NCBI GenBank assembly: GCA_016290095.1
Contig: JAEESU010000026.1
Coordinates: forward strand, 8,573-72,572
DNA length: 64,000 bases
Direction: 5' to 3'
DNA from: Clostridia bacterium
Lineage (GTDB): Bacteria > Bacillota > Clostridia > TANB77 > CAG-508
Below the pieces are notes generated by a model that ran no database searches, was not told the origin of the DNA, and saw only the letters and a program-made list of their open reading frames with translations. The position numbers and the translations under genes were made by a program. Of the stretch, positions 31,493 through 39,975 are shown piece by piece. Every line of letters starts with the position of its first letter. The first letter of the stretch is position 1.

Positions 31493-32218
31493 TTACTTTT
31501 TCCAATTATTCAAAATCTGATTATTATATTTTACTTCTTCCTCTTCTTTTACTTCTTTCTTTTTAAATAATCCTTTTTTTTCTTTAGAAATGTTTGGACT
31601 TTTCGACCTTGCTATTGCTTCTTCAACAGTTAACGTTCTTTCAAATTCAATAATGTTTTTAACTGGTTTATTATATACACCTTCAATATGAGTGACTCGT
31701 TTTGGCTTTTCGTTAATATCTATAAATCTTTGATAAGCTTCAAGAATCTTTTTATCTTTTCTACTTAAAACTTCATCACCCTCTTTTAATGTATTATATC
31801 TCCAAACAACATGTCTTTCATAAGAAGAAAAAGGCGAATTAGCTAAATCATCATAATCATATTCAACTTTAAATTGAGTATTTGAAATAGTGATATTTAT
31901 ATTACTCCAAGGCTTCTTTTTTGCTTTTATAAAGCATTCTCTTAAAAGTTTTATTGAATTATATACATCTGTAATTAATTTATAATACTGTTCTTCATCT
32001 ATATTAAAAATATTTGGAATTTCATATCCATTTACATATTTCTTTTTAATAATTCCTTTTGGCAAGTAGTAAAAGAACATTTCACCAACTGGCTTTTGAT
32101 TTGGCACATCAATAACAGAAGCATACAAATATATGCTTTCCCACTTTTCAGGAATGATATAAAATAACTTTTTTTGTATATCAGAATACAATATTTTTTC
32201 TTCTGGTAAACCTGTCAT
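31493..32218 (-). CDS. DUF600 (YezG/EsaG-like) immunity protein homolog with a roughly 90-aa Lys/Glu-rich C-terminal extension
   Basis: It contains IIPEKWESIYLYASV, FFYY, KKPWSN and YERHVVWRY. This is the signature order of YezG/EsaG-type antitoxins of polymorphic nuclease toxins. Confidence 0.5.
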   Translation of the reverse strand: MTGLPEEKILYSDIQKKLFYIIPEKWESIYLYASVIDVPNQKPVGEMFFYYLPKGIIKKKYVNGYEIPNIFNIDEEQYYKLITDVYNSIKLLRECFIKAKKKPWSNINITISNTQFKVEYDYDDLANSPFSSYERHVVWRYNTLKEGDEVLSRKDKKILEAYQRFIDINEKPKRVTHIEGVYNKPVKNIIEFERTLTVEEAIARSKSPNISKEKKGLFKKKEVKEEEEVKYNNQILNNWKK

Positions 32219-32235
32219 AATACACCTCTTAAGGA

Positions 32236-33771
32236 TTAGTTCTCAATTAAACTTTCACCTGTCATTTCTTCTGGCTTTTCTAATCCCATAATATCTAACA
32301 TTGTTGGTGCTAGATCTGCTAAACGTCCTTCTTTTAGTTTTTTAGCACCTGGTAACCCAACAATAGCAAGTGGAACAGGATTTGTTGTATGAGCTGTATG
32401 TGGTTCACCTGTTTTGTAATCAATCATTTGTTCAGAATTTCCATGATCAGCTGTAATTAATAAAACGCCACCAACTTCATTAATAGCTGTTACAACTTTA
32501 TCTACACATTCATCAATTGCTTCTAAAGCTTTAATAGCAGCTTCTAAGCTTCCTGTATGTCCAACCATGTCTGGATTAGCAAAATTTAATATAATAGAAT
32601 TATATTTTTCTGATTTGATTGCATCTACAACTTTTTCAGTAACTTCATATGCACTCATTTCAGGCTTTAAATCATACGTTTCAACTTTAGGTGATGGAAC
32701 TAAAATTCTATCTTCACCTTCATATTGTTTTTCTTCTCCACCATTAAAGAAGAATGTAACATGTGCATATTTTTCTGTTTCTGCAATTCTTAATTGTTTT
32801 AATCCTAAATTACTAATATATTCACCAAACGTATTTTTTAATTCTTCTTTTCTGTAAGCTATTTCAACATTTGGCATTGTTTCATCATATGGAGTCATGC
32901 AAACAAAATAAATATCATTTAATTTCTTTGTTTCAAACCCATCAAAATCTTTATCTACAATACTTCTAGTAATTTCTCTTGCTCTGTCCGGTCTAAAGTT
33001 AAAGAATATAACAGAATCTCCATCTTCAATTTTAGCAATAGGTTCTCCGTTTTTAGTAATAACTGTTGGTTTAATAAATTCGTCAAAGATTTCTTTTTGA
33101 TAAGATTCTTCAACTGCTTGATCAGCAGTAATTGCTTTTTCTCCTTCACCATTAACTAAAGCATTATATGCTAAGCTAACTCTTTCCCATCTCTTATCTC
33201 TATCCATAGCATAGAATCTTCCTGATACTGTAGCTATTTGTCCTACGCCTTTTTCTTTTATTTTTTCTTCTAGTTCAGATATAAAACCTTCTCCAGAAGC
33301 TGGTGGTGTATCTCTTCCATCCATAAAACAATGAACAAATACATTATCAAAATCTTTTCTTTTTGCAAGTTCTAGTAAAGCATATAAATGTCTATTATGG
33401 CTATGAACTCCACCATTAGATAAAAGTCCCATAATGTGAAGTTTTGAATTATTTGCTTTACAATGTTCTATTGCTTTAACAAATTCTGGTACACTAAAGA
33501 AGTTTCCATCTTCAATAGCTTTTGTTATTTTAGCTAAATCTTGATAAACTATTCTTCCTGCTCCAATATTTGTATGTCCAACTTCAGAGTTTCCCATTTG
33601 TCCTTCTGGCAAACCAACTTCTAATCCACTTGTGTGAATAATTGTATTTGGATTCTTTGTAAGTATCTCATTTAGATGTGGTGTATTAGCAAGTTTTACA
33701 GCATTTCCTTCTGTTCTTTCATTAATACCAAAGCCATCTAATATCATTAACATTGTTAGTTTATTATTCAT
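32236..33771 (-). CDS. gpmI: 2,3-bisphosphoglycerate-independent phosphoglycerate mutase
   Basis: It is 511 aa long and contains ILDGFG, NSEVGHTNIGAGR and ITADHGN. Confidence 0.93.
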   Translation of the reverse strand: MNNKLTMLMILDGFGINERTEGNAVKLANTPHLNEILTKNPNTIIHTSGLEVGLPEGQMGNSEVGHTNIGAGRIVYQDLAKITKAIEDGNFFSVPEFVKAIEHCKANNSKLHIMGLLSNGGVHSHNRHLYALLELAKRKDFDNVFVHCFMDGRDTPPASGEGFISELEEKIKEKGVGQIATVSGRFYAMDRDKRWERVSLAYNALVNGEGEKAITADQAVEESYQKEIFDEFIKPTVITKNGEPIAKIEDGDSVIFFNFRPDRAREITRSIVDKDFDGFETKKLNDIYFVCMTPYDETMPNVEIAYRKEELKNTFGEYISNLGLKQLRIAETEKYAHVTFFFNGGEEKQYEGEDRILVPSPKVETYDLKPEMSAYEVTEKVVDAIKSEKYNSIILNFANPDMVGHTGSLEAAIKALEAIDECVDKVVTAINEVGGVLLITADHGNSEQMIDYKTGEPHTAHTTNPVPLAIVGLPGAKKLKEGRLADLAPTMLDIMGLEKPEEMTGESLIEN

Positions 33772-33794
33772 TATGCATCCTTCTTTCTATTTAA

Positions 33795-34550
33795 CTATTC
33801 TTTATCCCAATTAACTATTTTAGCAAATTCATCTGGTTTTAAACTTGCTCCACCAACTAATCCTCCATCAATATCTGATGTTGAGAAAAGTTCTTTTGCA
33901 TTTGAAGATTTAACACTTCCACCATATTGAATAATGATTTCATTTGCAACTTCTTCACCATATAATTTTCTTACTTCTTCTCTAATTGCTTTTATTGAAT
34001 TATTAGCATCTTCTGATGTAGCTGTTTTTCCAGTTCCTATAGCCCAAATTGGTTCATAAGCAATTATTGTTTCTTTAGCTTGTTCTGGTGTTAAACCATT
34101 TAATGCTAAACGAGTTTGAGAAGTAATTCTTTCTTCTGTTTTTCCTGCTTCTCTTTCTTCTAACGTTTCACCAACACAAACGATTGGTTTTAAACTATTA
34201 GCAAATGCTGCTTTTAATTTTGAATTAACAGATTCGTCTGTTTCATTATAATATTGTCTTCTTTCAGAGTGACCAATTATTACATATTCAACACCGATTG
34301 ATTTTAACATTGATCCTGAAATTTCTCCTGTATATGCACCTGTTTCTTTAAAATTCATGTTTTGTGCACCTATTTTAATATTTGTTCCTTGTGCATTCAT
34401 TAAGCAATAAAATAAATCTGTGTATGGAACACATAGTACTACTTCTGCATCTGCTTCTTTTACTAATGGTTCAAATGCTTGGATGTAGTCAATAGCTTCG
34501 TTTGGAAGCATATTCATTTTCCAATTTCCTGCAATAACTTTTCTTCTCAT
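33795..34550 (-). CDS. tpiA: Triosephosphate isomerase
   Basis: The protein contains AGNWKMN, IIGHSERR and AYEPIWAIGTGKTA. Confidence 0.93.
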   Translation of the reverse strand: MRRKVIAGNWKMNMLPNEAIDYIQAFEPLVKEADAEVVLCVPYTDLFYCLMNAQGTNIKIGAQNMNFKETGAYTGEISGSMLKSIGVEYVIIGHSERRQYYNETDESVNSKLKAAFANSLKPIVCVGETLEEREAGKTEERITSQTRLALNGLTPEQAKETIIAYEPIWAIGTGKTATSEDANNSIKAIREEVRKLYGEEVANEIIIQYGGSVKSSNAKELFSTSDIDGGLVGGASLKPDEFAKIVNWDKE

Positions 34551-34572
34551 AATTTTAATCTCCTTTATATTT

Positions 34573-38796: not shown

Positions 38797-38848
38797 GTTT
38801 TTACCCTATAATAATTTTACCCTAAAACATAATCCTTTGCAACAATTA

Positions 38849-38892
38849 CAAAAAAAGATGATAAGATTTTTCTTATCATCTTTTTATTTTTA
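38849..38892 (-). terminator. Intrinsic terminator downstream of gap
   Basis: An AAGATGATAAGA-aaaa-TCTTATCATCTT hairpin is flanked by A7 and T-rich runs. Confidence 0.65.
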
Positions 38893-38902
38893 CTTTTCTA
38901 AA

Positions 38903-38955
38903 GAGTGTCCCTTTAGTTTCAAAGTGGAACTAAAAGGAACGTCCCCGTGAAACTC
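38903..38955. repeat. Short copy of the palindromic intergenic repeat family, related to 51700..51830
   Basis: The sequence is GAGTGTCCCTTTAGTTTCAAAGTGGAACTAAAAGGAACGTCCCCGTGAAACT. It shares GAGTGTCCC and GAACTAAAAGGAACGTCCC(C/T)GTGAAACT with the 51.7-kb copy. Confidence 0.6.
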
Positions 38956-39975
38956 TTAGCCTAATTCTGCAAAATATTTGATTGTTCTAACCATTTGGCT
39001 TGTATATGAATTTTCGTTGTCATACCAAGCAACTACTTGTACTTGATATAATCCATCAGTTACTTTTGTAACCATTGTTTGAGTAGCATCAAATAATGAT
39101 CCATAAGTAATTCCTATAATGTCTGAAGAAACTAATGGTTCTTCTGTATATCCATAAGATTGATTTGCAACTGATTTCATATGAGCATTTATTATTTCTG
39201 GAGTTAATTCTCCATCATATTTAACTGTAGCAACAAGAATTGTTGTAGATCCTGTTGGAACTGGAACTCTTTGTGCTGATCCAATTAATTTTCCATTTAA
39301 TTCTGGAATAACTAGTCCAATAGCTTTAGCTGCTCCTGTTGAGTTAGGAACAATATTTACAGCAGCTGCTCTAGCTCTTCTTAAATCTTCTTTTCTATGT
39401 GGTCCATCAAGTACCATTTGATCTCCAGTATAAGCATGAACTGTTGTCATGATACCACTTTGAATTGGTGCTAAGTCATTTAAACCTTTAGCCATTGGTG
39501 CTAAACAGTTTGTTGTACAAGAAGCTGCAGATATAACTGTGTCCTCTTTTGTTAATGTTTTTTCATTAACACCATATACTATTGTTGGTAAGTCTTTTCC
39601 TGCTGGTGCAGAAATAACTACTTTTTTAGCTCCTGCTTGGATATGAGCTGATGCTTTTTCTTTAGATGTATAGAAACCTGTACATTCTAATACAACATCT
39701 ACTCCTATTTGTCCCCAAGGTAAATTAGCTGCATCTTTCTCTGCATATATTTTTATTGTTTTTCCATCAACTGTAATTGAATCTTCTCCAGCTACTACTG
39801 TATCTGCTTTATCATATCTTTTTTGTGCAGAGTCATATTTTAAAAGATGTGCTAGCATAGTAGGACTTGTTAAATCGTTTATAGCTACGATTTCATATCC
39901 TTCTGCTCCAAACATTTGTCTAAATGCAAGACGTCCTATACGTCCAAATCCATTTATAGCTACTTTAACTGCCAT
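38956..39975 (-). CDS. gap: Glyceraldehyde-3-phosphate dehydrogenase, type I
   Basis: The protein begins [15 protein letters not shown], contains SCTTNCLAP, and is 339 aa long. Confidence 0.95.

Follow-up and report, generated by a model that had tools for sequence, protein, structure and literature searches.

Accessory genes of different evolutionary age in the glycolytic gene cluster of an uncultured gut Clostridia bacterium

The DNA analyzed here, referred to below as the window, is a stretch of 64,000 nucleotides (nt) from a Clostridia bacterium (contig JAEESU010000026.1 of assembly GCA_016290095.1, positions 8,573 to 72,572 of the forward strand), which belongs to a lineage of low-GC uncultured gut Clostridia near Candidatus Scatovivens. 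Its minus strand carries the glycolytic genes gap, pgk, tpi and gpmI together with four further genes, in the order gap, orf238, HExxH332, pgk-orf353-tpi-gpmI-yezG-like (Table 1). All eight open reading frames (ORFs) had been named in an initial annotation of the window, and all are present on this strand with the same coordinates. The GC content is even across the region. Searches of Pfam, NCBIfam, PHROG and PADLOC gave no match for orf238, HExxH332, orf353 or HExxH428, a second HExxH protein encoded elsewhere in the window, and public sources leave these four without a name or label them “hypothetical”. The inserted genes orf238, HExxH332 and orf353 are thus, as had been proposed, of unknown kind as far as family databases are concerned.

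Table 1. Features of the glycolytic cluster and the HExxH428 locus (positions refer to the window)
Feature	Positions	Strand	Remarks
gap, type I glyceraldehyde-3-phosphate dehydrogenase	38956..39975	-	TIGR01534, E = 3.5e-120; Pfam Gp_dh_N and Gp_dh_C
pgk, phosphoglycerate kinase	35674..36858	-	PF00162, E = 5.7e-165
tpiA, triosephosphate isomerase	33795..34550	-	PF00121, E = 3.8e-96
gpmI, cofactor-independent phosphoglycerate mutase	32236..33771	-	TIGR01307, E = 1.2e-219
YezG/EsaG-like (DUF600) protein, last gene of the operon	31493..32218	-	241 aa; conserved NQIL end
orf238, ORFan	38080..38796	-	True start probably at Met5 (38784)
HExxH332, predicted cytoplasmic gluzincin-like metallopeptidase	36986..37984	-	HELGH encoded at 37616-37630
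orf353, membrane-anchored protein inside the pgk-tpi operon	34573..35634	-	Transmembrane helix, variable linker, conserved C-terminal domain
HExxH428, separate narrow, fast-evolving HExxH family	24247..25533	-	428 aa; terminator follows the stop codon
Native terminator-promoter module (putative) upstream of pgk	36928..36971	-	Hairpin arms AAGAATACTT/AAGTATTCTT, -35 TTGAAA in loop, T-run, -10 TAGAAT
Degenerate module copy upstream of gap	40059..40089	-	TTGAAA-17-TAGAAT; promoter scan 10/12; 84 nt before the gap start
Terminator hairpin after gap, left cassette end	38852..38885	-	15-bp perfect stem and T-run; -16.2 kcal/mol, z -7.6
Terminator hairpin after orf238	38045..38080	-	-11.9 kcal/mol, z -5.1, then T-run
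Predicted HExxH332 promoter	38010..38038	-	TTGCAT - 17 nt - TGgTATAAT (extended -10), read from sequence
Strong terminator closing the pgk-...-yezG-like unit	31453..31499	-	20-bp stem and T-run; -30.9 kcal/mol, z -10.1
Repeated intergenic element of 57 nt, adjoining the gap stop codon	38899..38955	-	Left end of contig L150 stops exactly here

In the window, gap and pgk are separated by 2.1 kb that house two genes, and pgk and tpi by 1.1 kb with one gene; the short spacers and single promoter of a contiguous gap-pgk-tpi-gpmI operon are not seen. Gene order was compared in 80 genomic loci fetched with Pgk as the anchor, the nearest of which come from metagenome-assembled genomes of gut-derived Clostridia; the closest Pgk (89% identity) is that of Candidatus Scatovivens faecipullorum. 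Within the clade, the gap-pgk junction measures at most 300 nt in 18 of 22 loci, and the tpi-gpmI junction is filled in none of 23. The pgk-tpi junction is longer than 300 nt in 12 of 24 clade loci versus 3 of 47 more distant ones (Fisher p = 5e-5). Since pgk, tpi and gpmI are contiguous in nearly all of the more distant Firmicutes loci, the glycolytic cluster of the window is indeed interrupted relative to the usual order. The statement that each junction carries an insert applies to gap-pgk and pgk-tpi; for gpmI and the yezG-like gene it is misleading, their adjacency being ancestral. As to whether the interleaved order might as a whole be ancestral, which the initial annotation had considered, only the yezG-like part of it is.

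The genes had been described as four comparable insertions, but they differ in age. The yezG-like gene directly follows gpmI in all 25 clade loci that are long enough (spacers mostly of 2-81 nt, protein identities of 40-71%) and is, therefore, an ancestral operon member of the clade that was not inserted in this genome. The presence of orf353 at this position is limited to close relatives: orthologues are found between pgk and tpi in L151 (99% identical; L numbers designate fetched loci and contigs) and L148 (51% identical, with flanking pgk and tpi at 91%), and more distant homologues lie elsewhere in their genomes. Finally, orf238 and HExxH332 make up a species-specific two-gene cassette with predicted promoters and terminators of its own, which outside the window was found in one contig only, L150, of the same species and 99.85% identical. 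The pgk-tpi junction is a variable slot that holds unrelated genes in 12 of 24 clade genomes. The genes filling this and the gap-pgk junction in relatives are unrelated to those of the window and largely to each other; they include NUDIX, CYTH-like (by sequence reading), guanylate-kinase-like and Uma2 nuclease-like genes, an extracytoplasmic function (ECF) sigma factor with DUF4179 and genes of unknown kind.

The 40 nt immediately 5′ of pgk, AAGAATACTTGAAAAGTATTCTTTTTTGTTATAGAAT, comprise a hairpin and a subsequent T-run (-15.4 kcal/mol, z = -6.5) as well as the promoter boxes TTGAAA-17-TAGAAT. A 31-nt pattern describing this module matches the window exactly twice, upstream of pgk (36928-36958) and of gap (40059-40089), and never matches shuffled versions of it. 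Nineteen copies were retrieved from clade loci representing 14 genomes (L006, L008, L012, L015-L019, L021-L025 and L150), all of them on the coding strand and 49-109 nt upstream of start codons: seven precede gap, nine precede pgk and three precede tpi. The pattern occurs nowhere else in the clade loci of ca. 20 kb, nor in the outgroup or in shuffled sequence. The -35 hexamer, which lies in the loop of the hairpin, is invariant, and compensatory substitutions have occurred in the stem (A·T to G·C, T·A to C·G and T·A to G·C). Of the cells scored for the stem, 89.6% are paired, versus 53-64% with the partner slid, and eight are changed on both sides; neither this pairing nor this covariation was reached in any of 500 shuffles. 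An identical module is present in L006 as well as in L008 and L021, two loci with an uninterrupted gap-pgk spacer; it follows from the latter two that the module is native and that the cassette occupies the stretch from the gap stop codon to the module.

Four inserts are located directly upstream of a module copy: two are at gap-pgk junctions (window and L006) and two at pgk-tpi junctions (L016 and L017). Since such an insertion falls just upstream of the module, expression of the glycolytic genes need not be disturbed by it. We read the module as a putative terminator of the upstream unit combined with a promoter of the downstream glycolytic gene; its palindrome could also serve as an operator. 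With terminator and promoter so combined, the “cluster” of this clade would be a chain of separately promoted units.

A hairpin with a T-run is located 3′ of both orf238 and HExxH332, in line with the earlier proposal that each has its own terminator; that of HExxH332 is the hairpin of the pgk module. The spacers between pgk and orf353 (39 nt) and between orf353 and tpi (22 nt) are unstructured and contain a ribosome-binding site only. The predicted transcription units are gap, orf238, HExxH332 and pgk-orf353-tpi-gpmI-yezG-like. Since orf238 and HExxH332 appear to have a promoter and a terminator each, their presence would leave the expression of gap and pgk intact. No repeats other than the terminator hairpins, and no integrase, were found at the cassette flanks.

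The first cassette gene, orf238, yielded neither a homologue nor a structural lead. Translation likely starts at Met5, which is preceded by a GGAG ribosome-binding site and agrees with a 234-aa NCBI gene call. No relatives were detected in the fetched loci, viral contigs or PDB sequences, nor in 50,697 phage genomes and 72,556 plasmids.

For the second, HExxH332, a word-indexed search retrieved a single relative. An exhaustive profile search covering 1.84 billion representatives revealed a family of 161 cluster representatives, 118 of them at E ≤ 1e-10 and most 310-360 aa long. The family is confined to gut metagenome contigs of very low GC content (23-34%, with one at 40%). Among 66 aligned relatives, residues H119, E120 and H123 are at least 90% conserved; the positions that are nearly invariant in the family are N98, H119, E120, H123, E163 and E171. 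An AlphaFold2 model built from the 66-sequence alignment (predicted local distance difference test, pLDDT, 94.8; predicted template-modelling score, pTM, 0.93) contains strands 73-76, 86-89 and 94-97, a helix with the HExxH motif (109-144), a helix with the conserved Glu (148-177) and a large helical C-terminal half. In the model, the fold has the topology of a zincin core, including a Glu in the place expected of a third ligand: the HExxH helix would provide two zinc ligands and the catalytic Glu, and a Glu of the next helix the third ligand.

A Foldseek search with the model found nothing at E ≤ 0.001 in PDB or BFVD, and thus no solved zincin of significant similarity. Its weak matches were to collagenase peptidase domains and to Wss1, IrrE-like, SprT-like, lethal-factor-like and polyvalent-protein zincins, several of them from phage, and a profile search of PDB sequences returned only fragilysin and a WLM protease (E of ca. 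0.4-0.8). Sub-threshold Peptidase_M78 matches were obtained for 14 of the 66 relatives (best E = 1.7e-4), the window protein itself having none. The initial annotation had allowed that the HExxH proteins might turn out to belong to a well-known family; this weak Peptidase_M78 signal goes part of the way, and no well-known family claimed either protein. An ImmA/IrrE (PF06114) system was considered for HExxH332 and rejected, there being no match at the gathering threshold and no helix-turn-helix (HTH) partner. The neighbours of family members in 59 metagenome loci are variable, with no conserved partner gene; inspection of these loci by eye revealed no HTH repressor beside the relatives, the small ORFs that recur there seem spurious, and HExxH332 itself lies between orf238 and pgk. 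The nearest and only close relative (P0002, 51% identity) is preceded by hsp33, an HD-domain and a TSCPD gene and is not in a glycolytic context. By inspection, no signal peptide or transmembrane segment was seen in HExxH332. The most likely reading is that it acts in the cytoplasm as a zinc metallopeptidase and that its gluzincin-like family is new; metal binding and peptidase activity are predicted from the conserved motif and the model. A similar domain was also noticed as the C-terminal third of proteins of 500-960 aa in L117, L119, L121 and L122 (for example, L122:3290-6181); their long N-terminal regions are without annotation.

An N-terminal transmembrane helix is predicted for orf353, as expected from its earlier description as membrane-anchored. 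In its family of ca. 30 members, this helix is followed by a variable linker, coiled or of low complexity, and by a conserved domain at the C-terminus with the motifs GGGxG, YSEIQKxEK, IYIYDK and TYKHTFKKxxxGxYYWVSSE. No sequence-family match was found. In the AlphaFold2 model (pLDDT 75 overall and 80-95 in the C-terminal domain), that domain had its best fold matches among NTF2-like proteins (6jzf, 3rob, 3soy and 5wip), all of them below threshold (E ≥ 0.03, target TM-scores ≤ 0.35). The top match to this moderate-confidence model is the IMS domain of PARC6 (6jzf; probability 0.85, E = 0.03), and VirB8-like TraE was retrieved as well. We therefore describe orf353 only as a protein that is probably expressed by read-through inside the operon and whose modelled C-terminal domain, possibly NTF2-like, would be extracytoplasmic. 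A membrane-anchored slot protein of L004 and L013, considered as a distant relative of orf353, was discarded (hhalign probability 1.4%).

The DUF600 assignment of the yezG-like product was confirmed (PF04634, E = 1.4e-26, 93.9 bits versus a cut-off of 21.7). Residues 9-143 align to the EsaG structure 8guo (E = 4.9e-10), and BH3703 was matched at E = 7e-5; the score against TIGR01741, 65.6, is below the cut-off of 82.05. The proteins of the clade (L003-L029, L041) continue after the domain with a conserved segment, Y.EG.Y..P..NI.D.EKTLSVEEAIA, a highly variable low-complexity linker of 0 to ca. 150 aa and a conserved C-terminal NQIL; for EsaG/YezG, no such architecture is described. In the window the gene is flanked by gpmI and spoIIIAA, and in the 25 relatives by gpmI; among these flanking genes there is neither a toxin gene of the EsaD/YeeF (LXG) type nor any type VII secretion system (T7SS) gene. 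The label “immunity-like” therefore fits the domain but not the genomic behaviour of the gene. It can be regarded as a candidate domesticated antitoxin fold, fixed in a housekeeping operon.

From these observations we conclude, with reasonable though not full confidence, that accessory genes accumulated at three different times in the spacers of separately promoted glycolytic units, that HExxH332 is a probable zinc peptidase and that HExxH428 belongs to a different family. At the oldest step, in the clade's common ancestor, an EsaG/YezG-like gene would have been fixed at the end of the pgk-tpi-gpmI unit. Later, orf353, which close relatives share, would have been placed within the operon between pgk and tpi, and most recently orf238 and HExxH332 would have been inserted between the gap stop codon and the native pgk module. 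The mechanism may have been illegitimate insertion into neutral spacers.

Several points weigh against this conclusion. Downstream of the module T-run, contig L150 continues not with pgk but with the leader and beginning of a gap gene. This beginning matches the window gap at 37 of 40 nt, and the leader is typical of gap in the clade and unrelated to the gap leader of the window. In this contig the cassette is thus fused to another gap allele, and a single static insertion does not explain all the data. The nucleotide-metabolism genes (NUDIX, CYTH-like and guanylate kinase) that recur in the pgk-tpi slot could reflect function and not neutrality. The transcription units are predictions from the sequence, and a very distant common zincin origin of the two HExxH families is possible.

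L150 (positions 1-2074), which was recovered from two samples, matches window positions 38899-36928 at 99.85%. The contig may represent the cassette upstream of gap in another strain or species, a recombination event at the module or a chimera formed at the 31-nt repeat. If recombination was responsible, modules could move cassettes generally, the modules and the small repeat at the left end acting as portable homology between junctions or between related genomes. The break of L150 falls exactly after the hairpin T-run, its left end coincides with the 57-nt element, of which the genome has further copies, gap, pgk and tpi are preceded in the clade by module copies that are nearly identical, and at the four filled junctions named above the insert is directly upstream of a module. 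This evidence, however, comes down to one 2-kb metagenome contig that is possibly chimeric at the 31-nt repeat and in which only 40 nt of the alternative gap gene are visible. Moreover, most of the filled pgk-tpi slots, including that of the window, have no module beside tpi, and spacers upstream of promoters are neutral insertion sites anyway. Recombination via the module therefore appears to us unlikely, and it is slightly more doubtful still that the conserved hairpins are “docking sites” for cassettes hopping between gap, pgk and tpi junctions and between related genomes; if true, this would account both for the variable slots of the clade and for the L150 fusion.

The 57-nt element itself also occurs as an inverted pair of copies (51706-51757 and 51792-51819) around a terminator between convergent genes, namely, a gene containing Spo0A_C (Spo0A-like) and ileS (51706-51819). 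The repeat of ca. 55 nt, GAGTTTCAC.GGGACGTTCCTTTTAGT...AAACTAAAGGGACACTC, is intergenic and GC-richer, and it was not found in the fetched related loci. The possibility that the post-gap element is a stable RNA was considered and rejected (folding z = -1.7, not significant).

Alternatively, the inserted genes might be coupled to glycolysis: they would act on its enzymes or metabolites (a protease, an EsaG-like binder, NUDIX and CYTH proteins clearing damaged metabolites) and be co-regulated through the module. One could cite the tight clade-wide coupling of the yezG-like gene to gpmI, with its conserved NQIL and no neighbouring toxin gene, the fact that NUDIX, CYTH-like and guanylate-kinase-like genes recur as fillers between pgk and tpi and the predicted expression of orf353 from inside the operon. 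Yet the slot contents are heterogeneous and extend to Uma2 nuclease-like proteins, membrane proteins that are unrelated and a sigma factor; elsewhere, the neighbourhoods of HExxH332 and orf353 homologues are unrelated and contain no glycolytic gene, and the predicted terminators and promoters of orf238 and HExxH332 would insulate these two genes. We consider a functional coupling improbable.

The initial annotation had proposed four equivalent insertions, with HExxH332 and HExxH428 as recent, clear paralogues sharing about 40 collinear residues and belonging to one expanding family. Both proteins contain FHE(L/F)xH..xDM and end in basic tails. BLASTP of one against the other gave 8 identities in 27 positions (E = 0.059 in this single comparison). 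With a two-sequence profile, the hhalign alignment extended over 79 columns, covering both the HExxH helix and the Glu helix downstream of it (E = 0.006, probability 6%); with the 66-sequence profile, the probability fell to 1.8% and the alignment shrank to 18 columns around HExxH. Five jackhmmer rounds on a database containing both families, reporting up to E = 10, found no link, and none of the 161 relatives retrieved by the exhaustive search of HExxH332 is from the ca. 520-aa HExxH428 family. The “DM” following HExxH is conserved in neither. Arg/Lys-rich tails are present in both, as had been stated; these are generic, however, and only weakly enriched, the K/R fraction of the last 20 residues being 0.21 versus 0.13 overall in the HExxH332 family and 0.28 versus 0.17 in the HExxH428 family, and their motifs differ.

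HExxH428 has 15 homologues, mostly of 507-532 aa. It lacks the C-terminal domain of ca. 100 aa that all full-length homologues have, and keeps a basic tail similar to theirs. The signature of its family is H171/E172/H175 with E195/Q197/E199, that of the HExxH332 family H119/E120/H123 with E163/E171. Both signatures are conserved and of the gluzincin type, in agreement with the metallopeptidase-like nature attributed to the two proteins. Outside HExxH, the invariant positions of the families differ, as do their Pfam signals: weak M78 matches in one and no peptidase match in any member of the other. HExxH428 is only 64% identical to its orthologue in L084, while housekeeping proteins of L084/L085 are 88-96% identical to those of the window and the adjoining greA 96%. 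In L084 (2606-5784), the orthologue is followed by a tandem paralogue (P0005/P0016, 41% identical), the place of which is taken in the window by the unrelated orf299 (23317-24216); a decayed copy of P0016 was considered for orf299 and dismissed for lack of similarity. The HExxH428 locus is thus fast-evolving and duplicating, but inside its own family. We conclude from sequence comparison that HExxH332 and HExxH428 are different families that have only the zincin motif in common and that no sequence method joins into one expanding family. As the yezG-like gene, ancestral to the clade, is no insertion in this genome either, the proposal of four equivalent insertions and recent paralogy is already largely refuted, and we give it very little credence.

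An even poorer case can be made for a remnant of a phage, defence island or mobile element, or for an assembly artefact: ORFans are often attributed to phage origin (PMC1480536) and HExxH332 has weak structural matches to phage IrrE-like, SprT-like and polyvalent-protein zincins, but there are no PHROG or PADLOC matches, no phage or plasmid relatives of orf238, no relatives of any of the four families in viral contigs, no integrase, no flanking repeats and no deviation from a uniform GC content, and the gene order is no artefact because independent assemblies reproduce both orf238-HExxH332 (L150) and pgk-orf353-tpi (L148 and L151).

Several other features of the region were noted. Upstream of gap (40160-45223, minus strand), where no cggR-type regulator is present, lies a gene for a bacterial alpha-2-macroglobulin-like protein of 1687 aa with MG2, A2M, TED and receptor-binding domains, a thioester-like GCFEQ and a long internal insertion with multiple transmembrane segments. 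Two types of gap are found upstream of pgk in the clade, with 83-91% and only 44-48% identity to the window Gap (L015-L017, L019 and L022-L029 versus L003-L013, L018 and L021), which implies that some members of the clade have a divergent paralogue or xenologue in place of the original gap. An Rfam scan found no family in the cluster spacers; elsewhere, the window holds just a T-box leader upstream of ileS (54677-54909, minus strand) and a tRNA gene just upstream of HExxH428 (25596-25667, minus strand), both ordinary.

On the other side of the cluster, spoIIIAA (30441-31401, minus strand) is split into two overlapping ORFs by one extra C in the Walker A motif (SPGS-C-GKTT). An extra base is present at the same position in L006 (15449-16400), the gene is intact in L003 and L008, and both halves are well conserved; a shared frameshift, programmed slippage or decay could be the reason. 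When L084 (1-12265) and L085 are compared with window positions 16878-33396, the whole spoIIIA operon and the genes down to ca. 26.1 kb are absent, so that gpmI-yezG-like is almost directly followed in L084 by the HExxH pair of ca. 520 aa and greA. Together with the spoIIIAA frameshift, this absence suggests loss of sporulation genes in the lineage.

The arrangement is a case of ordinary genome plasticity, with lineage-specific accretion of genes in operon spacers, and changes no major paradigm. The new findings are modest, comprising two or three protein families without annotation, a glycolytic terminator-promoter module specific to the clade and a recurrent variable slot within a housekeeping operon. 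The families, namely, the gluzincin-like one of 161 clusters, the HExxH family of ca. 520 aa and the membrane-anchored orf353, are abundant in low-GC gut metagenomes. The module, in which the loop of a terminator hairpin contains the -35 box, would be a compact cis-element that organizes glycolytic expression in an uncultured clade of small-genome gut Clostridia, and it is directly testable as a regulatory element. The locus also illustrates how terms such as “immunity-like”, “paralog” and “insertion” can mislead when applied from sequence alone; synteny over ca. 25 relatives separates an ancestral member, a variable slot and a recent cassette.

Comparison with known systems reveals both similarities and differences. 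Like Peptidase_M78/ImmA-IrrE proteins, HExxH332 has in its model an HExxH helix after a small beta-sheet and, following it, a helix with a conserved Glu. Unlike them, it is twice the size of the M78 domain, owing its bulk to the large helical C-terminal half, stays below Pfam thresholds and has neither an adjacent HTH repressor nor a significant Foldseek neighbour. With the NTF2-like proteins VirB8/TraE and ARC6/PARC6, orf353 shares a predicted N-terminal transmembrane helix and a modelled C-terminal alpha+beta domain, but every match is sub-threshold, there is no sequence family and the model has a pLDDT of 75.

In the Bacillus type of Firmicutes cluster, the central glycolytic genes are arranged as cggR-gapA-pgk-tpiA-pgm-eno. 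The window agrees with this in the enzymes encoded, in their order (gap-pgk-tpi-gpmI) and in their location on a single strand. Unlike in the Bacillus type, an alpha-2-macroglobulin-like gene takes the place of cggR upstream of gap, the yezG-like gene follows gpmI where eno would be expected, gap and pgk are each preceded by a separate predicted promoter, the two being near-duplicate hairpin promoters, and accessory genes occupy two junctions.

Proteins with DUF600 are EsaG/YezG antitoxins of the T7SS nuclease toxins EsaD/YeeF (PMC9616950). Like these, the window protein matches PF04634 and the EsaG structure 8guo. In contrast to them, its gene has no toxin neighbour and is fixed in a housekeeping operon instead of being variable or tandem-arrayed, and the protein carries an extension of ca. 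95 aa made up of the conserved segment, variable linker and NQIL. Insertion of ORFans beside native operon genes, often with use of a native promoter, is a described route of operon evolution, in which insertions inside operons are rarer than terminal additions (Price, Arkin & Alm 2006, PMC1480536). The window resembles this route in that narrowly distributed genes are located by native ones and that orf353 and the yezG-like gene apparently use a native promoter. It differs in that the internal pgk-tpi junction is a recurrent slot throughout the clade, that the orf238-HExxH332 cassette appears to bring promoters and terminators of its own and that a conserved module marks the junctions.

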